A stretch of 64,000 nucleotides of DNA from an uncultured Gammaproteobacteria bacterium (GTDB lineage: Bacteria > Patescibacteriota > Microgenomatia > Levybacterales > UBA12049), in the NCBI GenBank assembly GCA_964503265.1, contig CAZCYO010000001.1, positions 162,064 through 226,063 on the forward strand. Direction: 5' to 3'. The stretch's first letter is position 1. Each line of letters starts with the position of its first letter. A model generated the notes under the pieces. The model had not been told where the DNA came from and ran no database searches. It worked only from the letters and a program-made list of their open reading frames with translations. Positions 28,166 through 45,875 of this stretch are shown here, in pieces. The translations under genes and the position numbers were made by a program.

Positions 28166-28166
28166 A

Positions 28167-31092: not shown

Positions 31093-31105
31093 AATTATAG
31101 TATAG

Positions 31106-31828
31106 CTAATTCTCCAGCGATTTAAGCATTTTTATTTCAGATGGCGTTAATTTACGATATTTTCCAATAGGTAAATCTCCAAGTACTAGTGGTCCGAATT
31201 GAACGCGTTGCAAATCAAGGAGGACGACCTGTAAGGCTTCACACATTCGTCGGATTTGTCTTTTTTTCCCTTCATGAAGTGTGATTTGAATAATACTATA
31301 TTCTTTATATTTCTTGATAATTTTTACGTCAGCAGGCATTGTTAACCCGTCTTCAAGCATCACGCCTTTTCGTAAAGAATCGAGTTGATGAGGAAGTAAT
31401 ATATGTGCGATTTTCGCTTCGTAGATTTTCGGCACGTGGTATTTCGGATGAATTAGATGGTTTGTCAGCTCTCCGTCATTTGTGAGTAAGATTAGTCCGT
31501 GCGTGTCTTTATCCAGTCTTCCAATTGGAAAAATCCGTACTCGTGTGTTTATAAATGATATGACATTATCTCTCCCATACTCATCAGAGGCTGTAGTGAT
31601 AATACCTTTCGGCTTATTAAGCATGAAATAGTGTAGATCAGGTTTTTTAGGAGGAAGACCATTTATAAGAATTCTATCTTTTTCAGGTGAAATTCTGCTA
31701 CCTGCCTCATCTACCTTTTTACCATTTACAGTAACCGTATTTTGTTTCAGAAATTCATCGACGGCACGACGAGAGCAGGCTCCTGAAGAAGAAAGAAACT
31801 TATCAATTCGAATAGTTATGTCTTTCAA
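31106..31828 (-). CDS. rRNA pseudouridine synthase, RsuA/RluB family (S4 domain + catalytic domain)
   Basis: S4 motif RIDKFLSSSGACSRRAVDEFLKQNTVTVNGKKV; catalytic GRLDKDTHGLILLTNDG; TTG start. Confidence 0.85.
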   Translation of the reverse strand: MKDITIRIDKFLSSSGACSRRAVDEFLKQNTVTVNGKKVDEAGSRISPEKDRILINGLPPKKPDLHYFMLNKPKGIITTASDEYGRDNVISFINTRVRIFPIGRLDKDTHGLILLTNDGELTNHLIHPKYHVPKIYEAKIAHILLPHQLDSLRKGVMLEDGLTMPADVKIIKKYKEYSIIQITLHEGKKRQIRRMCEALQVVLLDLQRVQFGPLVLGDLPIGKYRKLTPSEIKMLKSLEN

Positions 31829-31943
31829 AGTAAGGGGAAATTATATCATGAGATTAATAAAAAATCGCTCATCAGTCAAGGGATATAGGATTTAGTTATT
31901 GCATTTCGATTTATACTCTGTTACATTTTTCATAACCTACTAT

Positions 31944-32888
31944 ATGGCAGATCAAAAGAAAATTATGGTGACCGGAGCATTCGGTCAAATCGGTTCAGAG
32001 CTTGTTCCAGCACTCCAAGCACAGTATGGAAAAGAAAATGTAATCGCTGTGGGACATAAAAATATTCCTGAAGAATTTGAAGGAATTGTTGAGACGCTTG
32101 AGATAAATGATCATGCTGCAGTCACCTCAGTCATTGAAAAACATCAAATAAATACAATGTATCATCTCGTTTCACTTCTCTCTGCTCGCGGTGAAGTCGA
32201 TCCATCACTCACTTGGAAAATTAATATGGATGGCCTGAAGTCTGTTCTGGATCTCGCAGTTGAAAAGAATATGCAGATGTTCTGGCCTTCATCAATCGCT
32301 GCATTCGGTCCTAGTACTCCGGCAGATAACACTCCACAGCGAACAGTACTTGAGCCAACTACCATGTATGGTGTCACGAAGGTCTCAGGAGAGCTGATGG
32401 CTCAATATTATCATTTAAAATACGGACTTGATATTAGAAGTGTTCGCTATCCTGGAATTATTAGTTGGAAGCAGGAACCTGCTGGTGGAACGACAGATTA
32501 TGCAGTTGCTGTATTCTATGAAGCACTTCGAAAAGGGTCATACGAATTCTTTGTTCGAGAAGATACTGTTCTGCCCATGATGTATATGGACGATGCTGTT
32601 CGTGCGACGATCGGGCTTATGGAGGCAGATCCGAGTAATTTAACTGTTCGAACAAGTTATAACATCGCTGCTATTAGTTTTAAAGCTTCAGAACTTGCTG
32701 CTGAGATTAAAAAAAGAATGCCACTTGAAGTCACCTATGCACCTGATCATAGACAGAAGATCGCTGATTCCTGGCCGAAATCACTTGATGATTCAACTGC
32801 GAGAAGTGACTGGGGATGGAAGCATGAATTTGATTTGGTTAAAATGACGGATGTGATGCTTGAAAACCTCACGAAGAAACTTAAGTAG
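31944..32888 (+). CDS. tdh: NAD-dependent epimerase/dehydratase-family L-threonine 3-dehydrogenase (SDR-type TDH)
   Basis: Rossmann MVTGAFGQIGSEL, YxxxK (YGVTK); adjacent kbl gene supports the tdh assignment; ATG at 31944 preferred over the ORF-track TTG at 31899. Confidence 0.55.
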   Translation: MADQKKIMVTGAFGQIGSELVPALQAQYGKENVIAVGHKNIPEEFEGIVETLEINDHAAVTSVIEKHQINTMYHLVSLLSARGEVDPSLTWKINMDGLKSVLDLAVEKNMQMFWPSSIAAFGPSTPADNTPQRTVLEPTTMYGVTKVSGELMAQYYHLKYGLDIRSVRYPGIISWKQEPAGGTTDYAVAVFYEALRKGSYEFFVREDTVLPMMYMDDAVRATIGLMEADPSNLTVRTSYNIAAISFKASELAAEIKKRMPLEVTYAPDHRQKIADSWPKSLDDSTARSDWGWKHEFDLVKMTDVMLENLTKKLK

Positions 32889-32891
32889 TAT

Positions 32892-33016
32892 TTGTCATCC
32901 TGGAATCCCGAAGATCATCGGGATGGATAGGATCTCATAAAGTGGGATTCTATCGCTTTGCTCCAGAATGACAGTAGGAATTATCTAATAGATTCCCGAT
33001 CAGGTCGGGAATGACA
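32892..33016. mobile_element. full-length (~125 bp) MITE/RPE-like element with TTGTCATCC ... GGAATGACAA termini and two tcccga-N-tcggga hairpins
   Basis: Left TTGTCATCCtggaATCCCGAagatcaTCGGGAT; internal segment homologous to the ileS-internal copy; right end agatTCCCGAtcaggTCGGGAATGACAA; lies in the tdh-kbl intergenic region. Confidence 0.55.
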
Positions 33017-33043
33017 AACTAGACCCAGTATTTTAAATAAAGT

Positions 33044-34300
33044 ATGGCGAAACAAACTTTTATTGACTCATTAATAGCTGAAGTGGCTCGAATTGACGGG
33101 GCTGGGGTAGCGAAACGTAATGAAGTTATTATTGAAGGGTTTACTTCGGATCATGCCCCTCAGGCGATTATAGATGGTAAAAATTACCGAATATTTAATT
33201 CAAATGATTATTTAGGGCTCCGACTTTCTCCTGAACTTGCTAAAGCAGAGGAAGAAGCGACAGAGAAATATGGTGTGGGTCCTGGTGCTGTTCGATTTAT
33301 TTCAGGGACATTACAAGTTTATAAAGATCTAGAAGCTGCTGTGGCGAAATTTCATGGGAGGGACGATGCGATGGTCTTTTCATCTGCATTTGCGGCAAAT
33401 ATCGCAGTTTTGTCATGTTTTTTAAATAAACAAAGCAGAGATTCTGTCATGTCAGATAGTGTGGCTGTTATTTCAGATGAATTAAATCACCGAAGTATTA
33501 TCGATGGTGTACGTACTGCGAGCATTGAGAAAACGCAGAAATTTATTTATCGACATCTCGATTTTACGCATTTGGCTGAAGTGCTTGAAGCAAATAAAGG
33601 TAATTTCAAACGTGCTGTTGTCGTAACCGACGGGATATTTAGTATGATCGGGGAATATACGGATCTTAAGAAATTAAAAGAAGTGACAGATCGGTATGAT
33701 AGTGAATATGAAGAGGGAGTAATGGTAGTTGTGGATGATAGTCATGGTGTTGGGGCATTTGGTCCAACCGGTCGTGGATGTGAGGATGTTACAAATACAA
33801 AAGTAGATATCGTGGTAGGGACATTTGGAAAAGCATTTGGGTGTGATGGAGGATATGTGGTTGGCGATCAAGCGTTTATGGATTATCTTCGCGAATCAGC
33901 TGCTACATATATTTACTCTAATTCTGTTTCACCTGGAGTTGCTGGGTCAGCACTCGCATCAGTCACGACTGTGGCTAGTGAAAAAGGGAAAGAATTACTT
34001 AGTACACTTCAGAAAAATATCGCTCTTTTTAAAGAAGAAATCGCGAAAACGAAATTTGAATTTGCTGCGCAGTCGATACATCCTATTCAACCAGTGCTAA
34101 TAGGTGATGCGATGAAAACGAAAGAACTTAAAAAAGCATTATTTGACCGTGGTATACTCGTTACAAATATTAATTATCCAGTAGTTGCAAAAGGGAGAGA
34201 TGAAATTCGAGTACAAATTAACGCTTCTCATTCAGAGGAAGATATACGATTTTTTGTACAGCAATTGACAGCCGCTGGACGTGAAATGGGCCTCATATAA
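33044..34300 (+). CDS. kbl: glycine C-acetyltransferase (2-amino-3-ketobutyrate CoA ligase), class II PLP aminotransferase
   Basis: NYLGL, VRFISGT, PLP-lysine region GTFGKAFGCDGGYV; synteny with tdh. Confidence 0.7.
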   Translation: MAKQTFIDSLIAEVARIDGAGVAKRNEVIIEGFTSDHAPQAIIDGKNYRIFNSNDYLGLRLSPELAKAEEEATEKYGVGPGAVRFISGTLQVYKDLEAAVAKFHGRDDAMVFSSAFAANIAVLSCFLNKQSRDSVMSDSVAVISDELNHRSIIDGVRTASIEKTQKFIYRHLDFTHLAEVLEANKGNFKRAVVVTDGIFSMIGEYTDLKKLKEVTDRYDSEYEEGVMVVVDDSHGVGAFGPTGRGCEDVTNTKVDIVVGTFGKAFGCDGGYVVGDQAFMDYLRESAATYIYSNSVSPGVAGSALASVTTVASEKGKELLSTLQKNIALFKEEIAKTKFEFAAQSIHPIQPVLIGDAMKTKELKKALFDRGILVTNINYPVVAKGRDEIRVQINASHSEEDIRFFVQQLTAAGREMGLI

Positions 34301-34413
34301 AGATTCCTTCATGTTGCATTTAGTTATATAAATCAGTAATATACAAAAGATTAATTTGTAGGATATTTTCCTCTTTTTCATGCCTTTCCTGTCCAATAGT
34401 ATGAGTTTTTTTT

Positions 34414-36009
34414 ATGGAACAGGAATCTTTGCAGCTTATTGTTAAAAAAAATCCCCTTTGGTTTGACCTGTTGCTTCCTTTTTACATCGTTGTTAGCTTA
34501 TGGTACTTAATATGGATTTATGCATTATCACTTGATTGGTATACATGGTTTGCTGTACCACTGTTTACGGCAGAGATTTATCGAATTTGGTTTTCAATTA
34601 CATCACTTATTACAGCGCGTGTTCTGGCATGCCCTAAAAAAATTGATGCACCCACAACCATTTCTGTGGATGTTCTTATTCCGACACTTAATGAACCATT
34701 TGAAGTACTGGGAAAAACCATTGATGGAGCGATGAATATACGAGGTATTAAGAAGGTACTTGTGTTAGATGATGGAAAAAGGGAATGGGTTGAAGCGTAC
34801 TGTCAAGATATTGGAGCTATCTACTTAGCACGAGGAACAAATGTTCACGCTAAAGCGGGTAATTTAAATTTTGGGTTAAAACATTCTACAGCTGATTTTT
34901 TAATTACCCTTGATGCTGATCATATTCCAGAACCAGATTTTATCGAAAAAACTGCGGGATATTTTCATGATCCAAAACTCGCATTTATTCAAACTCCTCA
35001 AACATTTTATAACCTGGATAGTTTTCAGCACAGATCTGTTAAATCGTATCCACTGTGGAATGAGCAATCGATGTTTTATGATTCGATTCAACCGGCAAAA
35101 AATATATTTAATGCTGCGTTCTTTTGTGGAAGTAGTGCAATTATCAGACGAAGTGCACTCGATAGTATCGGAGGATTTGCGACAGGTACTGCAACAGAAG
35201 ATATTCATACAGCAATTCGAATTCATAGTAAAGGATGGAAGTCACTATTCCTTTCAGATGTACTTGCTCGAGGACTTGCACCAGCTGATCTTAAGGAATA
35301 CCATAAACAGCGAGTGCGCTGGGGTGCTGGTTCACTGGGACTACTTCTCCGTACAAAAGACTCACCACTTTTAATCCGAGGGCTTTCTCCAATGCAGAGA
35401 ATTTGTTATGTAAATTCAACTCTCGCATATGCTCAGGGACACGTGAAGTTATTTTACTGGATTTTGCCGATCATTATTATTTTTGCCGGGCATAATCCAT
35501 TTCGAATACCATTTCTTATTTTCTTAAGTATTTATCTTCCATATTTTTGGTTTTCCATCTGGATGACGAAATTATATTCACGCAATTCTTATCATCCGAT
35601 GTATACAGAACAGTATAATATCGCGAATATTTTTTCTAATTTAGTGGCTCTTAAAGGCGTTATTCGAGTACAGAAAAAATTTGCTGTATCGATAAAACTT
35701 AAAAAGAAACAAGAAAATTCATTTATCATAAAAGCGATGACTGGAATTGCATTAACGATGATTGGGGCTGAAGGATATGGATTATATTATTGGTATGCGC
35801 AGTATCATTTTTCAATTGAGAAACTTCTAAGTGATACGATCGTTTCTGGTATGTTTTGGAATTTGTTCAATCTTTTTTTCTTGCTTTCATTCTTAAAATT
35901 TGTGTATCAATTTAATAAACAAAAACAATTTCTGCATGAGGAAAAAAGGGAATTACAAACTGAAAATGTTACTTCTTTTAATCATGCTTCTCTTCAAATA
36001 AACCCATAG
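34414..36009 (+). CDS. processive GT2 beta-glycan synthase (cellulose synthase catalytic subunit BcsA-like)
   Basis: D (VLDDGK), DxD (LDADH), TED (TATEDIHT) and QxxRW (QRVRWGAG) motifs, N- and C-terminal TM bundles. Confidence 0.8.
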   Translation: MEQESLQLIVKKNPLWFDLLLPFYIVVSLWYLIWIYALSLDWYTWFAVPLFTAEIYRIWFSITSLITARVLACPKKIDAPTTISVDVLIPTLNEPFEVLGKTIDGAMNIRGIKKVLVLDDGKREWVEAYCQDIGAIYLARGTNVHAKAGNLNFGLKHSTADFLITLDADHIPEPDFIEKTAGYFHDPKLAFIQTPQTFYNLDSFQHRSVKSYPLWNEQSMFYDSIQPAKNIFNAAFFCGSSAIIRRSALDSIGGFATGTATEDIHTAIRIHSKGWKSLFLSDVLARGLAPADLKEYHKQRVRWGAGSLGLLLRTKDSPLLIRGLSPMQRICYVNSTLAYAQGHVKLFYWILPIIIIFAGHNPFRIPFLIFLSIYLPYFWFSIWMTKLYSRNSYHPMYTEQYNIANIFSNLVALKGVIRVQKKFAVSIKLKKKQENSFIIKAMTGIALTMIGAEGYGLYYWYAQYHFSIEKLLSDTIVSGMFWNLFNLFFLLSFLKFVYQFNKQKQFLHEEKRELQTENVTSFNHASLQINP

Positions 36010-36027
36010 TTTAATTTCCTCTTCACA

Positions 36028-36038
36028 TTTGGTATACT
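36028..36038 (+). promoter_or_regulatory. module 0 promoter: extended -10 TTGGTATACT
   Basis: TGnTATACT directly after the GT2 stop; the same ttcctcacatttg-type context is seen at the module C promoter. Confidence 0.5.
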
Positions 36039-36069
36039 CTCGCCATGTCTTTCACATTCTCGTGGAAGA

Positions 36070-36080
36070 GCACTTTTACA
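36070..36080 (+). promoter_or_regulatory. module 0 leader box (GCACTTTTACA, variant of GCACGTTTACA)
   Basis: One-mismatch copy of the box conserved in all five tandem modules. Confidence 0.45.
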
Positions 36081-36115
36081 TTGTTACGATGCCTACAAGG
36101 CAGAAAGGATCTGTA

Positions 36116-36607
36116 ATGGACCTATCTCGTTTGTTCTGGGTAAACCTTTTCGGTATGATGATGAGTACGGTACTCGTGTTAGAGTACCATTTCCTTGTCC
36201 AAGACCGAGGTAGTCGGGGCGTGAAGTCCGTGGCGACAGCAGGAGTACTATTCATGCTTGTTCCACAAACAGTCATGGACTGCTTCTTCGTATATAACTC
36301 AGTACTTATTTATCCACTGAACTTTTTCTATAGCATAATGGGCATACTCGCCTTTTTTTTGGCAGCAATGCTAGTGAGTTCGCTCACACCAAAGCGGTTT
36401 CATGTATACCTTCTCCCACTCCATGCACTTCTCATAGTTGCAGGATGTGTAGAGATGGTAGCTATTCCTATCACCGCTTATGCAGTACAGCATGCTAGAG
36501 GAATAGAAATGTTCTTCTTTGTCGCGCTGGCAAGTATCGTCATACCTGTCGGTTCTATCATAGGGGTCACATCGCTCATGCTTCCGAAATACGGAGGCAC
36601 ACACTAA
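36116..36607 (+). CDS. island module 0: polytopic membrane protein (163 aa, ~4-5 TM)
   Basis: SD AAAGGA 6 nt before ATG at 36116 (ORF-track start 36029 is TTG inside the promoter); GC-rich codons. Confidence 0.55.
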   Translation: MDLSRLFWVNLFGMMMSTVLVLEYHFLVQDRGSRGVKSVATAGVLFMLVPQTVMDCFFVYNSVLIYPLNFFYSIMGILAFFLAAMLVSSLTPKRFHVYLLPLHALLIVAGCVEMVAIPITAYAVQHARGIEMFFFVALASIVIPVGSIIGVTSLMLPKYGGTH

Positions 36608-36622
36608 CATGCAGGAGGAGTC

Positions 36623-36883
36623 ATGCGAAAAGAACTCAGTGACATGAATCGACGGCAATTGGGTCGTCGAGTTCGGCGTTACAATCAGGTGTGCAAGGTG
36701 CTTATTCGAGCATTTGCGTACTTGGAAGTAACAGATGCCTACAAGCTCTTTCAGTGCGAAGTCGCTTCCTTTAGGAGGGACATTCGCAAGAAGAGGAAGT
36801 ACCCAACGGGTGTTCTGCGGACGCGAGTTATCAGGGTGCATGAGCGTTTGCAAGCGGTTGTGAAGCTCACGCACCGAGTATAA
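36623..36883 (+). CDS. island module 0: small highly basic protein (86 aa, Arg/Lys-rich, nucleic-acid-binding-like)
   Basis: SD AGGAGG before ATG; RRQLGRRVRRYNQ ... KKRKYPTGVLRTRVIRVHERL. Confidence 0.55.
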   Translation: MRKELSDMNRRQLGRRVRRYNQVCKVLIRAFAYLEVTDAYKLFQCEVASFRRDIRKKRKYPTGVLRTRVIRVHERLQAVVKLTHRV

Positions 36884-36892
36884 GGAGGTCTC

Positions 36893-37168
36893 ATGGCTGA
36901 TAGGCAGTTTCAAGGATTGACCCGAGTTCAACTCGCTGGGATCGCATGGAACATGCGTGGAATCATGGATATTCTCAACTCAGGACCGGATCTCGATGTG
37001 TCATTTCACCTCGTCTGGTTCTACCGTGAGCTTGAGAACTTCACAACTATGTTTAATTCACAAGAAGACGTTGAGACGCTTCGTCTTCAACTGTGCGTGG
37101 TGTATCAGGAGATGCACGGCTTCATATCTGTAGGAGGAGATGAAGTATCATCTACTGTTCAGTCGTAA
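36893..37168 (+). CDS. island module 0: small soluble protein (91 aa)
   Basis: SD AAGGAGG before ATG; followed by structured terminator. Confidence 0.55.
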   Translation: MADRQFQGLTRVQLAGIAWNMRGIMDILNSGPDLDVSFHLVWFYRELENFTTMFNSQEDVETLRLQLCVVYQEMHGFISVGGDEVSSTVQS

Positions 37169-37177
37169 CAATATCTA

Positions 37178-37290
37178 TAAGCACCGTCGCGGTGTAACCG
37201 AGCAGTGATCCTTACTTCTGGACAATGGCGTCCATGAGGCGAGAACTCAGCTTCGGTTGCATAAACCAAAGCGGTGCTTTCTCGTTTTAG
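37178..37290 (+). terminator. module 0 structured terminator: AAGCACCG ... CGGTGCTT closing stem enclosing ~85 nt, then TCTCGTTTTAG
   Basis: Same GCACC/GGTGC closing helix with covarying flanks is found after modules A-D. Confidence 0.55.
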
Positions 37291-37359
37291 AATGATATAT
37301 TTCGAAATATTCCACAATAATCTTCATTACATTATAATCCCATAGCTTGTAAATTTTAC

Positions 37360-37374
37360 TTTTTTTGTTATACT
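37360..37374 (+). promoter_or_regulatory. module A promoter: T-tract + extended -10 TGTTATACT
   Basis: ttttttTGtTATACT. Confidence 0.5.
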
Positions 37375-37437
37375 CCAGTTTATATCTAAACATATGTAGA
37401 CTAATACCTGTCTATAGTAGGTTTATTTATGCTCATA

Positions 37438-37448
37438 GCACGTTTACA
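37438..37448 (+). promoter_or_regulatory. module A leader box GCACGTTTACA
   Basis: Exact copy of conserved 11-mer, ~65 nt downstream of -10. Confidence 0.5.
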
Positions 37449-37546
37449 GTACGGAAAAGTGATTCAATTAGGAACTCTTTATTTCATATCTATAGAGATA
37501 TGAGGTATGGGGTTCCTATTTTGGAACCGAATCGAGGAGGGTCAGC

Positions 37547-38020
37547 ATGGCTATCCAGATTCCCGACCCAGCTTTGGGAGCCTGGTTTTTTCCAGAAAAC
37601 GCCCCGATTCCTATGGAGTTCGTCTCTGATAACTTCGCACTTCGCATCAGCAAAGGCGGCCGTAAGGTTGTCGTTGGCGAGGTTACGATCATCGATGCGA
37701 TCAAGATGTGTATGTATACCGTCCGGATGGAGAATGGCTTGCCAGTTGCTTATTGGCAAGCTGTGCAAAGTGATCCCGATGCGAAGTTGACCCTTGGCCT
37801 GGCGCCACTGGGTGAAAAGAGGGAGGTAACTCCGAAGGAGCGCAGGAGGATGAATTTCCTTCTGCATAACGCGGCAGGGTGCAATTGTGTGCCGTTTCCT
37901 GGCGATGTGACCATCTTCTGGCGCACGGCGCTGGACATGTGCGCGTCTCCCAATAGTCAGAGGCATACGCCTCGGCGCCAGATGACCAAGGTCAGTCCGC
38001 GAAAAGCTCACAAGCGCTAA
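37547..38020 (+). CDS. island module A: hypothetical protein (157 aa) with basic C-terminal tail
   Basis: SD GAGGAGG before ATG; ~165-nt leader containing a ggttcc/ggaacc hairpin. Confidence 0.55.
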   Translation: MAIQIPDPALGAWFFPENAPIPMEFVSDNFALRISKGGRKVVVGEVTIIDAIKMCMYTVRMENGLPVAYWQAVQSDPDAKLTLGLAPLGEKREVTPKERRRMNFLLHNAAGCNCVPFPGDVTIFWRTALDMCASPNSQRHTPRRQMTKVSPRKAHKR

Positions 38021-38060
38021 GCCTCTCACTTCTCACACCATTCCGTACTCTCGTGCCTAC

Positions 38061-38145
38061 GCACCCTCGAATCAGTGATGATTCATTCGCCATGTGGCGG
38101 ATTCTTAGTGACAACGATGTCACAACGAGAGGGTGCATTACCATT
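38061..38145 (+). terminator. module A structured terminator: GCACCCTC ... GAGGGTGC closing stem, weak U-tract
   Basis: Covariant version of the GCACC/GGTGC helix; encloses a gtgaca/tgtcac hairpin. Confidence 0.45.
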
Positions 38146-38174
38146 TAAATAACCCATAGTTCTACTTTAATTCC

Positions 38175-38188
38175 TTTTTTGCTATACT
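38175..38188 (+). promoter_or_regulatory. module B promoter: T-tract + extended -10 TGCTATACT
   Basis: ttttttGCTATACT. Confidence 0.5.
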
Positions 38189-38226
38189 TCGCTTACGTCA
38201 TACTAAGAAAAAATCTTAGTGTGCTC

Positions 38227-38237
38227 GCACGTTTACA
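38227..38237 (+). promoter_or_regulatory. module B leader box (TC)GCACGTTTACA
   Basis: Exact 13-mer TCGCACGTTTACA. Confidence 0.5.
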
Positions 38238-38268
38238 TCTTTCGTATTGTGTCAGAAGAAAGGAGTCT

Positions 38269-38619
38269 ATGATGCTACCACATCCTCATGACTATGGACG
38301 AATTCAACTGCGAGCAGTATTTTCCCTGCAACGTTCACCAACTGGTGAAACTCTCATTGAAGAGGGCGACTACCGGCTGGTCAAGCATTTGCCATGTGGC
38401 CATCCATTTAAGACGATGGCACTAGCAATTATGCTTAACCTCGGATCGTACAAGATCTGGGAACTACGTGCTCTCATAGAGCATATAGAGAGAAAGGAGA
38501 GCGTTGGCATCGAAAGTATCTTTGGCGAACTAATCACCTGTGTGAGATGCCGTGAGGCATTTCTTCACCTCGTGACTGGGTTCATGGATGCACTCATCGC
38601 AATGGGCGAAGAGAGCTAA
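38269..38619 (+). CDS. island module B: soluble protein (116 aa) with Cys/His cluster (CGHP ... CVRC)
   Basis: SD AAAGGAG before ATG at 38269 (ORF-track 38179 start lies in the promoter). Confidence 0.55.
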   Translation: MMLPHPHDYGRIQLRAVFSLQRSPTGETLIEEGDYRLVKHLPCGHPFKTMALAIMLNLGSYKIWELRALIEHIERKESVGIESIFGELITCVRCREAFLHLVTGFMDALIAMGEES

Positions 38620-38637
38620 AACAAAGGAGGCTGTGTC

Positions 38638-38949
38638 ATGCGCGAATACTGGTGGGTTGGCATTCTTGGGTGGATTCTGCTCGATATCACTGGTAGTAGG
38701 TTAAGTCCTCGTGCCATTAAAGGTACATGGCGGAGTGAAGAGACACCACTTGGAAAAGTCATCTCTTTTCTCGGATACTCCAGTGTTCTGGCATCGCACA
38801 TCGTGTTCGTGGTTACCTTTCTTCTCCTTCTGCGCTCAGATGGATTCTTCGCAGTCGTCGGCTGTAGTGGAGCAGTCGCAGTAGGCGATCGCTCAGCTGT
38901 GAGTATGGGATACTTCACGCACAAACGAGAAAGGAGGAATCCACAATAA
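38638..38949 (+). CDS. island module B: two-TM mini-membrane protein (103 aa), basic C-terminus ...RERRNPQ
   Basis: SD AAGGAGG; C-terminus similar to module C mini-protein (...NRHRPQN). Confidence 0.55.
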   Translation: MREYWWVGILGWILLDITGSRLSPRAIKGTWRSEETPLGKVISFLGYSSVLASHIVFVVTFLLLLRSDGFFAVVGCSGAVAVGDRSAVSMGYFTHKRERRNPQ

Positions 38950-38958
38950 CCAAACAAT

Positions 38959-39071
38959 AAGCACCGTGGAGGTGTAACCGAGCAAAGTAGCTCATCAACG
39001 GACAACGGCGTCCATGAGATTGGCACTTAGCTACGGTTACCTAAACCTAAGCGGTGCTTTCTCATTTTTAG
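38959..39071 (+). terminator. module B structured terminator: AAGCACCG ... CGGTGCTT + TCTCATTTTTAG
   Basis: Near-identical in organisation to the module 0 terminator (shared internal ggtgtaaccgagca and ggacaa-ggcgtccatgag). Confidence 0.55.
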
Positions 39072-39090
39072 CGCCCCAAAGTCTTATTGT

Positions 39091-39108
39091 CTTTTTTTTT
39101 GGTATAAT
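39091..39108 (+). promoter_or_regulatory. module C promoter: T9 tract + extended -10 TGGTATAAT
   Basis: ctttttttttGGTATAAT. Confidence 0.5.
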
Positions 39109-39178
39109 TTCCTCACATTTGAAAGGTACAGAGACTATTCAAGCTGTCTTTATTACTTTATCAATTGTCTAATCTATC

Positions 39179-39189
39179 GCACGTTTACA
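39179..39189 (+). promoter_or_regulatory. module C leader box (TC)GCACGTTTACA
   Basis: Exact 13-mer. Confidence 0.5.
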
Positions 39190-39285
39190 TTTTTTGCGGA
39201 AATTAACCCACTCACCGATGGCTTTTTGTTTGGTATCACTACCAGCTGAAAAGCTGTCGAATGAGTGTAATGTAGGAGAGGATCT

Positions 39286-39615
39286 ATGAAGTTCGTGGAG
39301 GTCTACACTCGGTTGGAAGGAGTTCCAGAAGGAACTATCATCAGCTTGACGTTTAAAAAAAAGGACATCAAGAAAATTCTCTATTTGGCTACGATGATCG
39401 GGAAGAAAATCCCTATCTTCACAGTCGAGAAAGGAACAAAGAAGAAAATAAAGCGGCTGTCTCGTAAGCAAGTCTGGTATAACAGACGAGATCGTACGAT
39501 CTCTGTCCGGACCACTTCGACCTTTGGAGAAGCTCTGAATATGGATTGGTTCGTCACAGTTATGTGTTATAGCCTCGAACATGTCGAGGTCTTATTCCAT
39601 CAGGAGCACCGCTGA
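39286..39615 (+). CDS. island module C: soluble Lys-rich protein (109 aa), LTF-motif family
   Basis: SD AGGAGAGG; N-terminus MKFVEVYTRLEGVPEGTIISLTF paralogous to 40816 ORF (MKLVDIYALSSAGIPTGAKLVLTF). Confidence 0.55.
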   Translation: MKFVEVYTRLEGVPEGTIISLTFKKKDIKKILYLATMIGKKIPIFTVEKGTKKKIKRLSRKQVWYNRRDRTISVRTTSTFGEALNMDWFVTVMCYSLEHVEVLFHQEHR

Positions 39616-39727
39616 AGCGGTAAAGGAGGTCACAAACCGTACAGCTGCTCGAGTTAGCGGCCACTGTTCACAATTCCTTCATCGATCTGATGAGGAACCT
39701 CGACTATATTCGCTGAGGAGGTGCACT

Positions 39728-39877
39728 ATGCCCCCGTTCAACGTAGTTATTGCTATCGTAATTGTAGCTCTCGTGGCTACATTCGCGATAAGCCGTGATC
39801 TATGGCCAGCTCTCGGAGTGTTCGTTGGAGGAATTCTCATTCTGTTGTGGTGCAATAGACACCGTCCACAGAATTAA
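39728..39877 (+). CDS. island module C: two-TM mini-membrane protein (49 aa)
   Basis: SD GAGGAGG before ATG at 39728; paralogous to 40630 ORF; ORF-track 39581 extension is unsupported. Confidence 0.5.
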   Translation: MPPFNVVIAIVIVALVATFAISRDLWPALGVFVGGILILLWCNRHRPQN

Positions 39878-39913
39878 ATTTCCTTACTTTTTCCGTAATG
39901 GTTATCGTGCCTT

Positions 39914-39978
39914 AAGCACCCCGATACGTTTCCAGTGATGGGAATTTCCGAAAGGATAGGGGTGCTTTCTCATTTTTA
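39914..39978 (+). terminator. module C structured terminator: AAGCACCCC ... GGGGTGCTT + TCTCATTTTTAT
   Basis: Compensatory change (CG to CC/GG) relative to modules 0 and B. Confidence 0.55.
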
Positions 39979-40020
39979 TATCCTCAATTCATTGAAACCT
40001 ATAGTTTGATTATTTCTCAT

Positions 40021-40033
40021 TTTTTTGCTATAC
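40021..40033 (+). promoter_or_regulatory. module D promoter: T-tract + extended -10 TGCTATACT
   Basis: tttttTGcTATACT. Confidence 0.5.
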
Positions 40034-40175
40034 TACACATGCATTTGAAGGCTATCTAGACTCATTTTTGCTGTCTCGATAATACTTCTTCTGCTTATTT
40101 ATTCGACCACTGTATCTTACTTTTCGACTTAGATCATTTGATCTGTGGCTTAAAGAGCGATAAGTAGTGGACTTC

Positions 40176-40186
40176 GCACGTTTACA
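40176..40186 (+). promoter_or_regulatory. module D leader box (TC)GCACGTTTACA
   Basis: Exact 13-mer; followed by tcccgat-atac-atcggga hairpin and CGATGGCTTT(T)TG motif shared with module C leader. Confidence 0.5.
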
Positions 40187-40303
40187 AATCATCCCGATAT
40201 ACATCGGGAATTGCGGAAATAGATAACTAATCGATGGCTTTGTGCCTCGACAGACAGTCGGGATAGAAAGTCGTCGGTTAGTTTTTCGTCGAAAGGATCA
40301 TAA

Positions 40304-40606
40304 ATGTCTCACGAAGCTGTTCTGAACATAGTCACAGACCTTCTGCCACTGACGCTGATCGAGATAACCTTCACACTAGAAGGATTTCAGGGTCTCTGCC
40401 TTCTACATCAAATGTGTCAACGCAAGGGTTTACCTCTGCTATTTGACGCGCGGACTCATCGTCGAATTGGACGTCTAGTGAGCATCGGAGAGTGGGGAGA
40501 CGATGGAAATCGTCATATCTTCGGATACATATCCGAGGCTTTTTCTCCCACTCACTTCACTGAAACACTTCAGCCATATCTCGAAAATGTTCGAGTAGTG
40601 GCCTAA
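40304..40606 (+). CDS. island module D: soluble protein (100 aa), LTF-motif family
   Basis: SD AAAGGA; LTLIEITFTLEG motif. Confidence 0.5.
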   Translation: MSHEAVLNIVTDLLPLTLIEITFTLEGFQGLCLLHQMCQRKGLPLLFDARTHRRIGRLVSIGEWGDDGNRHIFGYISEAFSPTHFTETLQPYLENVRVVA

Positions 40607-40629
40607 CCTACATAATGGAGGTGTCCAAC

Positions 40630-40791
40630 ATGCAAACATTCTGCGATCTGTTTGCCATCTTTCTGGTGGCGATCGGGTATACAGCCGCATTAAGCGGCGG
40701 ACTACTCGGTGGGGGAATTCTCATCACAGTTGCGCTCCTTCTCATCTTCGCGCCCACAGTCTATATGGACTGGGCAAAATTGCGTCGCTGA
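40630..40791 (+). CDS. island module D: two-TM mini-membrane protein (53 aa; below ORF-track size cutoff)
   Basis: SD GGAGG 8 nt before ATG; MQTFCDLFAIFLVAIGYTAALSGGLLGGGILITVALLLIF resembles module C mini-protein; coordinates hand-counted (+/-1). Confidence 0.45.
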   Translation: MQTFCDLFAIFLVAIGYTAALSGGLLGGGILITVALLLIFAPTVYMDWAKLRR

Positions 40792-40815
40792 TGCGACAAA
40801 TGTAATGGAGGCACC

Positions 40816-41013
40816 ATGAAGCTCGTCGACATCTATGCTCTGTCCAGTGCTGGTATCCCGACGGGAGCAAAACTCGTACTTACGTTCGAGCTCAATGCGC
40901 ACATGGGTCCTTTCCACCTGAAAGGACTTGTTCAGAATCACAGTTTGCCGACCGCGTCGGCCCCTTCTTGGAGAGCCTGGAGATTAAGCGCCCGTAAGGG
41001 CAATGAGCTATAA
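40816..41013 (+). CDS. island module D: small soluble protein (65 aa), paralog of module C 109-aa protein N-terminus
   Basis: SD GGAGG; MKLVDIYALSSAGIPTGAKLVLTFEL. Confidence 0.5.
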   Translation: MKLVDIYALSSAGIPTGAKLVLTFELNAHMGPFHLKGLVQNHSLPTASAPSWRAWRLSARKGNEL

Positions 41014-41035
41014 CGCAATCGTACACGTGCGAATC

Positions 41036-41112
41036 TCGCACCCTTGGGTCTTTTTAGACCCGCCTCTTTAGAGAGGTTTCTGTAAAAAGAAAGGGTGCGA
41101 TTTTTGCATTTT
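41036..41112 (+). terminator. module D / island-end structured terminator: TCGCACCCTT ... AAGGGTGCGA + TTTTTGCATTTT
   Basis: 10-bp closing helix around two internal hairpins (gggtc/gaccc, cctct/agagg) followed by U-tract, 40 nt before ileS. Confidence 0.55.
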
Positions 41113-41155
41113 ATGCCTAGTTGAATAGGCTCAACCTTTGCGCTACAATTAGCCC

Positions 41156-44032
41156 ATGGCTCACGAGATAACATTTGATGCAGTAACCCCGAAAGTAAAT
41201 TTTCCTGAAATGGAAGAAGAGACACTTTCTTACTGGAAAGAAAACCGTATTTTTGAAAAATCACTTGAAAAAGATTCCCCTAAAGGTGACTGGACATTTT
41301 TAGATGGTCCACCTTTTGTCACAGGACTTCCACACTATGGTCATATTTTAGGCAGTATCGCGAAAGATTTATTCCCTCGTTTTAAAACGATGCAGGGATA
41401 TCACGTCAGACGTGTATGGGGATGGGATGGGCACGGACTACCGATTGAAAATAAAGTCGAGAATAAGCTTGAAATAAAACGTAAAAAAGATATCGAAGAA
41501 ATCGTCGGAGTAGCGAAATTTATCGAAGAATGTAAAACATATGTGAATGAAGTATCAGGAGAGTGGGAATGGTACATCGATCATATCGCGCGTTGGGTAG
41601 ATTTTAAAAATGCATACAAAACCTGGGATACACCATACATGGAATCTGTCATGTGGGTGTTTAAACAGATGTATGAAAAAGGATATGTCTATAAAGGACT
41701 TCGCGTTTCTCTCTACTGTCCTCACTGTTCAACACCTATTTCTAACTTCGAAGTCGCGATGGATGCAGACAATTATAAAGAAATTATCGACGCAGCTACC
41801 ACATACAAGTATGAATTAGTAGGTGAAAATAATACCTATATTCTTGCTTGGTCGACAACTCCTTGGAATAAAATCGTTACTCCAGCCCTGGCCGTAAATC
41901 CAAAACTCACCTATGTAAAAGTGATACAGGGTGAAGAACTGTATATTTTAGCTGAATCCACTATCAAGACGATTCAAGGGGAATATGAAGTAATTGAAAA
42001 GATGCAGGGAGCTGACTTAGTAGGAAAGAAATTCGTGCCTCATTATGATTATTATAAAATTGCAGAGGGTGAGAAAGCCTTTGAAATTATCCCTGGAGAT
42101 TTCGTGACAGCAGAGGAGGGAACTGGCGTTGTCACAATCGCTGCCTACGGTGAAGAGGATTTGAAAGTAATGAACGAATATAATGTTCATATCGAACTTC
42201 ATGTCGATGAGGAAGGTACAATTAAATCCGACGTGCCGATGTTTGGTGGGATGTATTATTTAAAGGCAAACAAAGCAGTTAATGCAGATTTAGCAGAACG
42301 AGGGCTTGTCTATCGTGATGAAGATTTGCCACACAATGTTCCACTCTGCTGGAGATGTCACACCAGGCTCTACTATGCTCCACAAAATGCGTGGTATGTA
42401 AATGTACAGATACTTAAAGATCAACTGAAAAAAACAAATAAAGATATTAACTGGGTTCCATCTCACTTTAAAACTGGACGCTTTCAGAAAAGTATCGAAG
42501 CAGCACCAGACTGGTGTATATCACGAAATAGATACTGGGGTTCACCGGTTCCAGTGTGGGAATGTATGTGTGGAGAGCGATTCGTTCCAGGATCGATTGC
42601 TGAACTAGAAACGGCAAGTGGACGAAAAATAAAAGACTTACATAAGCCAGAAATAGACGAAGTAACAGTTCCGTGTAAAAAATGTGATCAAACCATGCAT
42701 AGAGTACCAGAAGTACTCGATAGTTGGATTGAGGCTGGGTCTGCAGCTTTTGCAGAACGTCACTTTCCATTTGAAGGAATCACTGATCCTAGCGAATTCT
42801 TCCCATCAGATTTTATCGTCGAATATACAGGACAGATTCGCGCATGGTTCTATGTATTACATGTTATTTCAAATGCAATTTACGGTGAAAAAGCATTTAA
42901 AAATGTCGCTGTTACTGGAGTAATACTTGGAACTGATGGACGAAAGATGAGTAAGAATCTGGGTAATTATCCAGATCCGAAGGAACTTATGAAAGAGTAT
43001 GGAGGAGACGCACTCAGACTCTATCTCATGAGTAGTCCTGTGATTCGTGGTGAGGATGCGATTATATCTGCTGAAGCATATCGACAGGAAGTACGAGGAC
43101 TCATGCTTATTTTATGGAATGTCTATAACTTCTTTATTAGTTATGCTCTTATTGATGGCTGGACTCCTGATCGTCATCCTGGAAAAGCAACGACTTTGAT
43201 AGGATCTCACAAGAATGGAGATTCTATCGCTGCGCTCCAGAATGACAATGTTTTAGATCAATGGATCATATCTCTTCAGAATACGTTGATTAAAGAAGTC
43301 ACTGAGTGTTTAGAAAAATATGATACGGTAACTTCAATCGCGAAATTGCATGAATTCGTTAATGACCTTTCGACATGGTATTTACGACGAAGTCGAGATC
43401 GTGTGGGACCAAGTGCGATGGATACACATGACAGAGAAGCGTTTTATGTAACCATGTATGAAGTACTGACCACACTATGTCGTGTGATGGCGCCGTTCAC
43501 ACCATTTTTAGCAGATGAAATGTATATGAATTTAACGAAAGAAGAGTCTGTGCATTTAGCATCATGGCCTGAGTATAAAGAAGAACTAATTAACAAACAG
43601 CTTAACGAAGAAATGAATGTGGTTCGTAAAATTGTCGAGATAGGACATGCGAAACGAAAAGAAACAGGTTTTAAAGTTAGACAGCCACTAAATAATTGTC
43701 AAATATCAAATGTCCAATATCCAATATCCAAAGAGATGATGCAGTTGCTTAAGGATGAACTAAACGTAAAAGAAATAGAATTTACTTTAGGAGAAGAAGA
43801 AATAGATGTTATTTTCGACATTGTGTTAACACCTGAGCTTAAAGCTGAGGGGGAGGCGCGGGATATCGTTAGAAAGATTCAAGAAGAAAGAAAGATGATC
43901 GGAACGACGCTTGATGCGAAAGTGAATGTGACGATTCCTGAGTATCCTGAAAGTTTTGTGGAGTATATTAAACAGAATGCACTAGTTGAAATAATTTCAA
44001 AAGGGGAGTTTAAGGTAGAGAAAGTTGGGTAG
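41156..44032 (+). CDS. ileS: isoleucyl-tRNA synthetase, eukaryote-like type 2
   Basis: HIGH variant PHYGH, GWDGHGLPIE, KMSKN motif GRKMSKNLGNYPDP; N-terminus typical of type 2 IleRS; TACAAT 7 nt before ATG, no SD. Confidence 0.85.
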   Translation: MAHEITFDAVTPKVNFPEMEEETLSYWKENRIFEKSLEKDSPKGDWTFLDGPPFVTGLPHYGHILGSIAKDLFPRFKTMQGYHVRRVWGWDGHGLPIENKVENKLEIKRKKDIEEIVGVAKFIEECKTYVNEVSGEWEWYIDHIARWVDFKNAYKTWDTPYMESVMWVFKQMYEKGYVYKGLRVSLYCPHCSTPISNFEVAMDADNYKEIIDAATTYKYELVGENNTYILAWSTTPWNKIVTPALAVNPKLTYVKVIQGEELYILAESTIKTIQGEYEVIEKMQGADLVGKKFVPHYDYYKIAEGEKAFEIIPGDFVTAEEGTGVVTIAAYGEEDLKVMNEYNVHIELHVDEEGTIKSDVPMFGGMYYLKANKAVNADLAERGLVYRDEDLPHNVPLCWRCHTRLYYAPQNAWYVNVQILKDQLKKTNKDINWVPSHFKTGRFQKSIEAAPDWCISRNRYWGSPVPVWECMCGERFVPGSIAELETASGRKIKDLHKPEIDEVTVPCKKCDQTMHRVPEVLDSWIEAGSAAFAERHFPFEGITDPSEFFPSDFIVEYTGQIRAWFYVLHVISNAIYGEKAFKNVAVTGVILGTDGRKMSKNLGNYPDPKELMKEYGGDALRLYLMSSPVIRGEDAIISAEAYRQEVRGLMLILWNVYNFFISYALIDGWTPDRHPGKATTLIGSHKNGDSIAALQNDNVLDQWIISLQNTLIKEVTECLEKYDTVTSIAKLHEFVNDLSTWYLRRSRDRVGPSAMDTHDREAFYVTMYEVLTTLCRVMAPFTPFLADEMYMNLTKEESVHLASWPEYKEELINKQLNEEMNVVRKIVEIGHAKRKETGFKVRQPLNNCQISNVQYPISKEMMQLLKDELNVKEIEFTLGEEEIDVIFDIVLTPELKAEGEARDIVRKIQEERKMIGTTLDAKVNVTIPEYPESFVEYIKQNALVEIISKGEFKVEKVG
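43172..43248 (+). mobile_element. ~77 bp copy of the TGTCATCC/GAATGACA repeat family inserted in-frame within ileS (encodes ~RHPGKATTLIGSHKNGDSIAALQNDN)
   Basis: cGTCATCCtggaa...ataggatctcacaagaatggagattctatcgctgcgctccaGAATGACAa is ~85% identical over ~50 nt to the internal part of the 32892-33016 element. Confidence 0.6.
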
Positions 44033-45296: not shown

Positions 45297-45875
45297 ATGT
45301 TGAATGAAAACTTTATTATCTTAGGAGCTGTTATTGGTGCTGTGGGGTCTTTAGCGTATTTAGTTGATACGGTAAAAGGTAAAGTAAAACCAAACCGTGT
45401 ATCGTTTTTACTGTGGTCGATAGCACCGATTATTGCTTTTGTGGCTCAGTTAAAACAAGGTGTTGGACTTGAATCGCTTATGACATTTAGTACGGGTTTT
45501 TTACCACTTACCATTTTTATCGCTTCTTTTGTTAATAAATCGGCTGAGTGGAAGTTAACTACATTTGATCTAATATGTGGATTACTTTCAGTAGTTGGGT
45601 TAATTTTATGGCTGATAACTAGGATTGGAAATGTTGCGATCCTCTTTAGTATTATTGCAGATGGGTTAGCCGCATTACCGACACTAGTTAAAGCATATAA
45701 ATATCCAGAATCTGAAATTGCATGGCCTTGGCTTGCTACTTCAATAGGCGTTATCCTTACCGTATTAACGATAAAAGAGCTGACATTTGCTAATAGCGGT
45801 TTTATTATTTATATTTTCATCGTTAACACTCTTATTTTCAGTTTTGCCCAGTTTAAAATAGGTAAAAAGGTCTAA
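45297..45875 (+). CDS. hypothetical polytopic membrane protein (192 aa)
   Basis: 5-6 hydrophobic segments; no motif. Confidence 0.45.
   Translation: MLNENFIILGAVIGAVGSLAYLVDTVKGKVKPNRVSFLLWSIAPIIAFVAQLKQGVGLESLMTFSTGFLPLTIFIASFVNKSAEWKLTTFDLICGLLSVVGLILWLITRIGNVAILFSIIADGLAALPTLVKAYKYPESEIAWPWLATSIGVILTVLTIKELTFANSGFIIYIFIVNTLIFSFAQFKIGKKV

Follow-up and report, generated by a model that had tools for sequence, protein, structure and literature searches.

Tandem type I toxin-antitoxin loci, such as ldr, ibs/sib and zor/orz, are present in enterobacteria, and streamlined genomes contain flexible islands, which are not normally made of repeated units with a common promoter, leader motif and terminator. 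Phage morons are independent promoter-gene-terminator units of atypical composition that reside in prophages (Cumby, Davidson and Maxwell 2012, PMC3594210). Putative mobile promoters are homologous promoters located in front of non-homologous genes, with at least 80% identity over 50-100 nucleotides (nt) (Matus-Garcia, Nijveen and van Passel 2012, PMC3488235). Here, an island at positions 36010-41112 of a 64-kb stretch of contig CAZCYO010000001.1 (the whole stretch is referred to as the window) is compared with these systems. The island consists of five units, U1 to U5, each with its own set of small open reading frames (ORFs) and expression signals. With a probability of roughly 0.55, it represents a lineage-specific, copy-number-variable, moron-like array of expression cassettes in a Levybacteria chromosome, in which the units share a probably co-regulated chassis of promoter, leader and terminator.

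As in morons, all six cassettes of the window (five in the island and one outside it) have a predicted promoter and a predicted factor-independent terminator of their own, their cargo consists of small proteins, many of them associated with membranes and none with an assigned function, and their composition differs from that of their neighbours. In particular, GC content at third codon positions (GC3) is 0.42-0.63 in the 13 cassette ORFs of the window and 0.27 +/- 0.03 (range 0.21-0.33) in 25 host genes. Unlike morons, however, the units lie outside any prophage or recognisable mobile element, flanked by GT2, ileS, lepB and other chromosomal genes; they are arranged in tandem, share one homologous chassis and occupy a locus inherited across species. 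As with mobile promoters, homologous promoters and 5' untranslated regions (UTRs) precede non-homologous genes, both within and across genomes. Nevertheless, the best promoter and leader matches among the units (64-76% over 37-98 nt) fall below the threshold for mobile promoters, the likeness resides in motif blocks with variable spacers, and the promoter is paired with a conserved type of terminator. In view of morons (PMC3594210) and putative mobile promoters (PMC3488235), the statement in a preliminary description of the island that no known system has this architecture is too strong.

Reading of the sequence together with the ORF list places five plus-strand units between the stop codon of a GT2 gene and ileS:

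34414-36009: cellulose-synthase-like GT2 gene, upstream flank of the island.
41156-44032: ileS, downstream flank of the island, with its promoter at 41121-41149.

GC content is 0.29-0.34 at 35600-36199 and about 0.30-0.38 in the flanks, rises to 0.43-0.56 over 36000-41199 and is again about 0.39 in ileS; within the island it dips five times to 0.38-0.40, once per unit promoter. The order of elements is the same in each unit: a promoter, a leader carrying a conserved box, one to three small ORFs led by Shine-Dalgarno (SD) sites, a structure closed by GCACC...GGTGC and a U-tract. The five-unit island and its GC jump, both reported in the preliminary description, are confirmed. The extent given there (36010-41112) is right for the island; however, a sixth cassette on the minus strand (48200-49105) had been missed. 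An assembly chimera was ruled out, since an independent Logan assembly of SRR12487046 is base-for-base the same over 27547-42738 and the arrangement is syntenic in a relative, L087 (see below).

The promoters follow the pattern CCYATAGTT, a weak -35 element, about 17 nt with a T-tract, and TGnTATA(C/A)T. The CCYATAGTT element precedes the -35 position in all five units and abuts the weak -35. The sequence TTTTTGNTATAMT occurs exactly at 37362, 38176, 39096 and 40022 (promoters U2-U5), whereas U1 has a weaker T-tract and cacatttggTATACT at 36033-36038; thus, the T-tract with extended -10 that had been ascribed to every unit is exact in four and weaker in the first.

36003-36038, plus strand: U1 promoter, with CCCATAG overlapping the TAG stop codon of the GT2 gene, the -35-like TTTAAT, 17 nt and TGGTATACT.
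37339-37374, plus strand: U2 promoter, with CCCATAG, TTGTAA, 17 nt containing a T-tract and TGTTATACT.
38153-38188, plus strand: U3 promoter, CCCATAGTTC...TTTTTTGCTATACT.
39075-39108, plus strand: U4 promoter, CCCAAAG...TTTTTTTTTGGTATAAT.
39998-40034, plus strand: U5 promoter, with CCTATAGTTTGATT, 17 nt and TGCTATACT.

The T-tract/TGnTATAAT part is the generic promoter of Levybacteria and is common across them (e.g., before rplU in many loci), in agreement with the earlier view that the array uses host-type promoters, whereas the CCYATAGTT part is specific to the cassettes.

The distance from the -10 element to the ATG is 77, 172, 80, 177 and 269 nt in U1 to U5, which bears out the leader length of 70-270 nt first estimated. 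All five leaders contain a box with the consensus GCAC(G/T)TTTACA:

36070-36080, plus strand: U1 box, GCACTTTTACA, with one mismatch to the other four.
37438-37448, plus strand: U2 box, GCACGTTTACA; the conserved block reaches ...AGTACGGAA in the L087 orthologue.
38227-38237, plus strand: U3 box, GCACGTTTACA.
39179-39189, plus strand: U4 box, GCACGTTTACA, followed by TTGCGGAAAT and the CGATGGCTTT hairpin, common to U5.
40176-40186, plus strand: U5 box, GCACGTTTACA.

These four exact copies and one near copy compare with a chance expectation of 0.70 for the whole 64-kb window, and the common leader box proposed at the outset is therefore real. In its relaxed form, GCACNTTNA, the box has eight matches in 64 kb, six of which are the leaders of the six cassettes, in sense orientation. 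It lies 10-141 nt past the -10, always on the sense strand and usually after a hairpin and a U-rich stretch; its distance to the promoter and to the ORF is variable, and no hairpin stands at a fixed offset. In predicted folds, the unpaired probability of the box is 0.55, compared with a leader mean of 0.38, and of 14 leaders, 12 have a box value above the leader mean. Recognition at the RNA level is favoured, as the box is confined to the sense strand, lies in transcribed sequence every time, varies in position and is predicted to be accessible.

The association between promoter element and box extends beyond the window. In 2.5 Mb of Levybacteria loci, 29 matches to YATAGTT-type promoters were found. 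Thirteen have a box within 200 nt, all in four lineages, and 12 of these 13 lie upstream of GC-rich sequence; the other 16 are background, with no rise in GC. As the promoter element and box precede unrelated cargo in four lineages, with variable spacers between them, shared regulation rather than mere recent duplication is indicated, and most likely the two elements make the cassettes a co-regulated set under one trans-acting factor. Candidates for a factor recognising the chassis are the only obvious regulators of the window, an OmpR-type protein and a histidine kinase. The OmpR-type winged-helix protein (25076-26182, minus strand) has an N-terminal part of 290 amino acids without assignment; the histidine kinase is encoded at 19881-21056, minus strand. 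Both genes lie 10-16 kb upstream of the island.

Several other identities of the box were considered and rejected. As a -35 element, it has no -10 at proper spacing. Read as leader-peptide codons, it encodes Ala-Arg-Leu in the U units, and a stop codon ends the reading in the family of the sixth cassette, in L002a and in the three cassettes of a further relative, L006. It contains only a half-site of a LacI/cre-type operator, solely in the TTTACA variant, and a role as an antisense -10 was dismissed on reading the sequence. A covariance search against Rfam gave no match at the gathering score in the window and two chance-level matches at E <=5 in 35900-41200. Long, near-perfect hairpins just before the SD site were also seen in the leaders of U2, U4, U5, L002 and L006. 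The long hairpin of the U5 leader (40226-40295) and the cassette C leader of L087 share 73% identity, with compensatory changes.

At their 3' ends, U1 to U5 carry elements of 55-105 nt with a GCACC.../...GGUGC base helix and a U-rich tail, which are predicted to be intrinsic terminators. They are atypical as terminators in being branched, with two to three inner hairpins, or greatly extended; a simple terminator scanner missed them because they are branched. Their folding z-scores range from -3.5 to -7.0, and none of 200 shuffled sequences folds as well, so that the closing helix and U-tract attributed to every unit stand up to scrutiny.

37179-37290, plus strand: T1, an extended hairpin of about 100 nt closed by AAGCACCG/CGGUGCUU, with a conserved apical hairpin GGACAAUGGCGUCC, followed by UUUCUCGUUUU; -43.6 kcal/mol, z -4.3; homologous to T3 and to terminator TA of L087.
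38061-38150, plus strand: T2, a four-way junction with an 8-bp closing helix GCACCCUC/GAGGGUGC, three hairpins and a U-rich tail; z -5.7.
38959-39070, plus strand: T3, a paralogue of T1; z -6.2.
39914-39978, plus strand: T4, a closing helix AAGCACCCC/GGGGUGCUU round two hairpins, followed by UUCUCAUUUUU; z -3.5.
41030-41112, plus strand: T5, a closing helix GCACCCUU/AAGGGUGC round three hairpins, followed by a U-tract; z -7.0.

Comparison with relatives shows that these structures are maintained. In the alignment of T1, T3 and TA, seven of 35 pairs carry compensatory changes, as do three of 12 pairs in the leader hairpin of the sixth-cassette family (three sequences). T2 is 80% identical to TB of L087, with the middle hairpin swapped and three compensatory pairs. 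T2, T5 and TC of L087 are all four-way junctions; T5 and TC attain the same architecture from different hairpin sequences, and the closing GCACC/GGUGC is kept throughout T1 to T5, as it is in TC. A tRNA-like nature of the four-way junctions was considered and rejected, as tetraloops are present and ARAGORN finds nothing.

The island contains 11 ORFs of 49-163 codons, each with a GGAGG or AAGGA SD site 5-9 nt upstream of its start, as had been described in outline:

36116-36607, plus strand: U1a, 163 amino acids, a membrane protein with about four hydrophobic segments; called in the Logan contig.
36623-36883, plus strand: U1b, 86 amino acids, very basic (isoelectric point 11.4), with a weak L087 homologue, A79 (E 0.001).
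36893-37168, plus strand: U1c, 91 amino acids, acidic (isoelectric point 4.4).
37547-38020, plus strand: U2a, 157 amino acids, soluble; its L087 orthologue has 134 amino acids and is 36-42% identical.
38269-38619, plus strand: U3a, 116 amino acids, soluble.
38638-38949, plus strand: U3b, 103 amino acids, with one or more hydrophobic segments.
39286-39615, plus strand: U4a, 109 amino acids, basic, weakly similar to U5a; the gene caller called an antisense ORF instead, and its coding status is less certain.
39728-39877, plus strand: U4b, a hydrophobic peptide of 49 amino acids similar to U5b.
40304-40606, plus strand: U5a, 100 amino acids.
40630-40791, plus strand: U5b, 53 amino acids, with two hydrophobic segments.
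40816-41013, plus strand: U5c, 65 amino acids.

The sixth cassette, C6, is located between lepB and a GT2 gene of 242 amino acids:

48200-49105, minus strand: C6, the whole cassette.
49092-49087, minus strand: -10 of the C6 promoter, TTTTTTTTGCTATAAT, with the leader hairpin downstream.
49029-49019, minus strand: C6 box, GCACATTGAGA.
48578-48928, minus strand: C6a, 116 amino acids, soluble, with a GTG start.
About 48331-48534, minus strand: C6b, about 67 amino acids, hydrophobic.
48205-48330, minus strand: C6 3' hairpins, structured, without GCACC/GGTGC closure or a clear U-tract.

Syntenic orthologues of C6 occur in L002 (protein 39% identical, neighbours 79-83%) and in L083, a relative at strain level (89%). 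In the leader, conservation over roughly the first 90 nt past the -10 is far higher than in the protein. After the box, the leader (48935-48995, minus strand) contains an extra, strongly self-complementary insert of about 58 nt that is absent in L083 (1430-1457), which suggests that palindromic elements are inserted into and lost from leaders.

Those cassette ORFs that can be tested are real genes under purifying selection. The ratio of nonsynonymous to synonymous substitution rates (dN/dS) is 0.25 for U2a and its L087 orthologue, compared with 0.06-0.07 for GT2 and ileS, and the two proteins retain a common C-terminal motif, TPxERRRxNxLLHxAAG...PFP...W.T.L.MCASP, although their DNA no longer aligns. 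Between the window and L083, C6a has dN/dS 0.31 (dS 0.22, dN 0.07), while the adjacent GT2 gene has dN/dS 0.01 at dS 0.25. By this measure, the evolutionary rate of cassette genes is several times to about 30 times that of the genes beside them. An AlphaFold model of C6a from a three-sequence alignment (mean predicted local distance difference test, pLDDT, 81; predicted template modelling score, pTM, 0.73) consists of a helix, four strands and two helices.

This evidence bears on the proposal that the island is an array of structured non-coding RNAs in which the ORFs are incidental. A GC-rich region in an AT-rich genome is often a mark of structured RNA, structure in the leaders and 3' elements is strong and significant, and long shadow ORFs are present on both strands. 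However, the 11 ORFs have correctly spaced GGAGG-type SD sites, U2a and C6a have dN/dS well below 1 with conservation at the protein level that persists where nucleotide similarity is lost, C6a adopts a confident predicted fold, and no Rfam family matches, even at E <=5. The proposal is therefore largely refuted already and scarcely tenable.

The cassette proteins have few relatives. Among 1.84 billion cluster representatives, full HMMER detects three members of the U2a family; two further HMMER matches proved spurious, being low-complexity or repeat-rich proteins, one of them KNL1-like with MELT repeats. For C6a, 5.8 billion clustered sequences contain a family of three, the two relatives of C6a both being from within the clade. 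A word-indexed protein search returned U2a itself alone, and full HMMER and a locus comparison were needed to reach the L087 orthologue (38% identity) and a more distant member; thus, orphan calls from word-indexed search are lower bounds and are unreliable for fast-evolving small proteins. A search of metagenomes and viral contigs based on the U2a alignment found nothing, with peptide patterns that were poorly conserved.

Apart from U2, which has no hydrophobic partner, every cassette of the window (five of six) has a small hydrophobic protein (U1a, U3b, U4b, U5b or C6b) beside one or two small soluble ones. The pattern of a small membrane protein with a soluble one, fast evolution and turnover suggest, with low confidence, a conflict or interaction function for the cargo, such as toxin/immunity, phage exclusion or host contact. 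A stronger version holds that the units are toxin-antitoxin or toxin-immunity arrays, in which U4b, U5b, C6b, U3b and U1a would be membrane toxins or immunity proteins controlled by soluble partners or 5' UTRs. Hydrophobic peptides of 49-67 amino acids beside small soluble proteins, long and structured 5' UTRs and tandemly duplicated, fast-evolving units all accord with this. U4b (49 amino acids), U5b (53) and C6b (about 67), with one or two hydrophobic segments each, are about the size of type I toxins, which are hydrophobic peptides of less than about 60 amino acids, and tandem type I loci share with the island the tandem units, the hydrophobic peptides of about 50 amino acids and the long structured 5' UTRs. 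In contrast to those loci, in which an antisense or divergent small RNA gene overlaps the toxin mRNA, a consensus promoter scan and inspection of the island revealed no convincing antisense promoter and no evident antisense RNA gene, most units also encode soluble proteins of 65-157 amino acids, and there is no sequence relationship. In addition, no toxin, antitoxin or defence profile in Pfam, PADLOC, NCBIfam or PHROGs matches, and U2 lacks the hydrophobic partner. As an account of the array, this explanation is unlikely; as a statement on the cargo, it is compatible with a moron-like cassette array.

An all-vs-all comparison of the units detects similarity only in non-coding parts, namely T1/T3 (76% identity over 123 nt, E 9e-22), the U4 and U5 leaders (E 9e-5) and the promoter blocks. 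Among the proteins, U4a and U5a (E 0.015) and U4b and U5b (E 0.007) are weakly similar, and no other pair scores. The inter-unit similarity that the preliminary description had reported is thus real, though confined to non-coding parts. Its claim that the proteins form paralogous families is weak, most of them not being detectably paralogous, and the duplication origin is borne out for T1/T3, the U4/U5 leaders and U4b/U5b but not for most proteins.

The same locus was found in L087 (SRR15237805) by following the GT2 gene. In this related species, whose GT2 and ileS are 77% and 83-86% identical at the amino-acid level, the arrangement GT2-island-ileS recurs with three cassettes in 2.3 kb, which supports the suggestion that the array varies in copy number. 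In cassette A, a U1b-like gene is followed by a terminator of the T1 type. Cassette B is orthologous to U2, and its terminator and the next promoter are 80% identical to the segment from T2 to the U3 promoter. Cassette C combines a U5-type leader and a T5-type terminator with different ORFs. In both genomes, the CCCATAG element of the first promoter shares nucleotides with the stop codon of GT2. The genes on either side of the island have reached saturation at synonymous sites between the window and L087 (proportion of synonymous differences 0.67-0.72), and within the island only four non-coding segments can be aligned: T1 (71%), the U2 promoter with its leader (64%), T2 together with the promoter after it (80%) and, in the U5 leader, the 3' half (73%). 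Promoters, leader hairpin and box, and terminators are therefore better conserved than the proteins.

The chassis is also found elsewhere: in two other Levybacteria, at 6600-9000 of L002 and at 18150-19500 and 22300-22895 of L006, and in the window at the C6 locus. In L006, whose ileS is only 65% identical, cassettes follow lepB and a tRNA-Val gene and carry the same promoter element together with the box variants GCACATTAAGA, GCACGTTAAGT and GCACCTTGATT. At 19137-19470 of L006, a cassette promoter, CCCATAGTTT...TTTTTTGTTATAAT, drives a PQ-loop/SemiSWEET gene of 88 amino acids, with box GCACGTTAAGT just 10 nt past the -10 and a whole leader of 33 nt. The chassis is thus not limited to orphan cargo, which indicates a shared regulatory signal rather than import together with foreign cargo. 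In the same genome, two paralogous GC-rich minus-strand genes follow lepB and tRNA-Val(CAC) at 16357-18100 (238 and 217 amino acids, 37% identical, no Pfam match), and an orphan GCACC...GGTGC element (17951-18015) sits a short way upstream of the first cassette. This region has the appearance of a tRNA-site island, but 22.9 kb of L006 showed no integrase.

Assembly breaks coincide with the island edges in L002, L088 and L089 (104 nt before ileS, 33 nt after the GT2 stop codon and inside GT2), and the contig that ends inside GT2 belongs to a strain 98% identical to the L002 species. These breaks indicate that the island of the L002 species is unassembled; such edge breaks are typical of repeats or population variants. 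Assembly breaks, a fixed hotspot, gene content that varies between relatives, atypical composition and orphan genes are features that the locus has in common with flexible islands.

The following mechanism would account for these observations. The units look like self-contained, insulated transcription units, with strong host-type promoters, short genes that are well signalled for translation and robust terminators. The chassis comprises four parts: a sigma-70-type promoter in which CCYATAGTT abuts the -35 and is joined to the host-usual T-tract and extended -10; a 5' UTR with a hairpin and the strand-specific box GCACNUUNA in a mostly unpaired stretch; one to three SD-led small genes, usually one for a soluble and one for a membrane protein; and a large, often branched intrinsic terminator with GCACC/GGUGC at its base and a U-tract. 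The promoter element and the box would answer to one trans-acting factor, and the terminators would insulate every unit and protect its 3' end. Unequal homologous recombination between the repeated promoters and terminators would lead to gain and loss of units (five in the window, three in L087), while the cargo genes would diverge very fast or be replaced. In L087, the promoter of cassette C is the counterpart of the promoter after T2 (the U3 promoter), and the leader of cassette C is that of the U5 leader, from which it follows that the extra material of the window starts at the U3 leader and ends within the 5' part of the leader of U5. It equals two more cassettes (the U3 and U4 cargo) placed between conserved promoter and leader elements. 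Moreover, T3 is a copy of T1 and U4 a diverged copy of U5, and these three observations fit unequal recombination.

Alternatively, a recombinase could drive the exchange, as in an integron- or IS200/IS605-like system in which the box and the 3' hairpin would be insertion or excision sites. The array resembles an integron in that small tandem genes on one strand, mostly orphans and differing in number, occupy a fixed locus, with an imperfect palindrome after each set; the 3' elements are large, the U5-type leader carries different ORFs in the window and in L087, and one copy of the box resembles GTTRRRY. Other copies hold TTAC or TTGAT, target words of the IS608/ISDra2 type. However, no tyrosine recombinase, intI or HUH transposase was found in the window (Pfam, most large ORFs), nor an attI site. 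On reading, no attC site with a RYYYAAC/GTTRRRY pair is present, and the GCACC/GGTGC-closed 3' palindromes end in U-tracts like terminators. Integron cassettes are mostly promoterless and served by a common Pc, whereas each island unit has its own predicted promoter and leader. In addition, the box has no constant spacing to promoter, ORF or hairpin, and homologous recombination between chassis repeats suffices to change the copy number. A recombinase-driven system is thus very improbable. The island, which fails every defining feature of an integron, as the preliminary description had concluded, is filed as a moron-like cassette array or flexible island.

A further question is how the cassettes came to differ in composition from the host. 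The GC3 of ribosomal protein genes is 0.17-0.31, which led to the rejection of translational selection as the cause of the high cassette values. Across the four lineages, cassette genes (the window ORFs and those at 10533-12597 of L087, 6841-8832 of L002 and 16530-22707 of L006) have GC3 of 0.42-0.66 and host genes of 0.17-0.38, the sole exception being a small hydrophobic ORF of L087, C51 (0.27). Orthologues keep these values, with 0.63 and 0.55 for U2a, 0.62, 0.61 and 0.48 for C6a, and 0.55 for the SemiSWEET gene of L006. That GC3 is high in both members of orthologue pairs separated by saturated divergence speaks against one recent transfer whose composition has yet to drift to that of the host. 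Either GC-rich mRNA is selected in the units, or the cargo is repeatedly renewed from a GC-richer pool.

The same data weigh on the explanation that the island is the remnant of an integrated mobile element or prophage, in which morons would have been left after the genes of the element had decayed and the GC content would derive from a donor. Cassette GC3 outside the range of the 25 host genes, near-orphan cargo, a promoter-gene-terminator layout like that of morons (PMC3594210) and the position of the L006 island directly after a tRNA-Val gene are what such a remnant could leave. On the other hand, Pfam searches of most ORFs of at least 150 amino acids in the 64 kb revealed no integrase, transposase, recombinase, capsid, terminase or phage gene, and the 64-kb window contains no tRNA gene. 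Neither at the nucleotide nor at the protein level does the island resemble anything in 50,697 phage records, in 72,556 plasmids or in the IMG/VR contigs; in the last of these, DNA pattern searches (T1 core; promoter and box; the same with CCATAG) gave chance hits only, in unrelated GC-rich or coding sequence. Moreover, the island is syntenic in L087 across saturated divergence, yet has not drifted to host composition, and its promoters are host-type and belong to a chassis that also drives the SemiSWEET gene. A mobile remnant is therefore rather improbable. The absence of phage and transposon genes noted in the preliminary description holds, whereas its idea of horizontal acquisition as a simple event does not: the locus is the same in L087 despite saturated synonymous sites, and high GC3 is kept in both. 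Overall, the interpretation first put forward is partly supported.

The host and its surroundings are consistent with a chromosomal locus. The closest ileS sequences all belong to metagenome-assembled genomes of Candidatus Levybacteria/Patescibacteria, the best being 83% identical and the others at most 69%. The window is ordinary chromosome, encoding murG, ftsA, ftsZ, methyl- and glycosyltransferases, polA, CNNM, the histidine kinase and the OmpR-type protein, as well as GH18, an rluA-like gene, ileS, ftsW, rplU, rpmA, parB, lepB and an envelope-polysaccharide cluster. An ORF for a hydrophobic protein of 192 amino acids without Pfam match lies between ftsW and rplU (45297-45875), and two gaps, 18016-18622 (607 nt) and 30449-31105 (657 nt), contain no ORF of at least 150 amino acids. 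Among 160 Levybacteria loci retrieved via ileS, nothing like the island was found beside ileS outside the clade, and JGI metagenomes yielded no in-clade relative.

Several points weigh against a co-regulated, moron-like cassette array. The lasting high GC3 of orthologues is not explained by this model. The five independent transcripts and real termination at their ends are predictions, and a generic promoter scan of the region found nine promoters where 10.5 were expected, with no enrichment. The box could also act at the DNA level, as an operator. The ORFs of U4 and U5 were missed by the automatic gene caller, and their basis is SD sites and weak paralogy only. Comparison of the cassette proteins with Pfam, PHROGs, PADLOC (10 proteins) and NCBIfam profiles gave nothing significant, nor was a confident fold match obtained, and because no family, defence-system or fold match is at hand, the conflict role of the cargo is a guess. 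Finally, the sampling of each relative covers about 20 kb round ileS only.

Beyond this lies a bolder proposal, which at present is a doubtful one: the promoter element and the branched GCACC/GGUGC terminator, together with the leader hairpin and the GCACNUUNA box, may form a previously undescribed "expression slot" system of Patescibacteria. In such a system, small-protein genes with fast turnover would be held at high GC, moved from slot to slot without a recombinase and co-regulated via a new cis-regulatory RNA element, and the box and closing helix would be bound by a specific RNA-binding or processing factor.

Patescibacteria combine tiny genomes with a scarcity of known regulators and a very high proportion of small proteins without known function. 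The unusual features of the array are its conserved regulatory chassis and its maintained GC enrichment. The locus is thus a compact natural experiment, in which fast-evolving orphan genes are combined with regulatory parts that stay constant across species and with a GC3 roughly double that of the genome. The branched terminators, with their invariant base helix, can also help to annotate where transcripts end in Patescibacteria genomes. If the box is a regulatory RNA element, it would give initial access to a regulon of an uncultivated phylum, and if the cargo serves in toxin/immunity or phage exclusion, the array would illustrate how episymbiotic bacteria retain and refresh conflict genes without mobile-element machinery.

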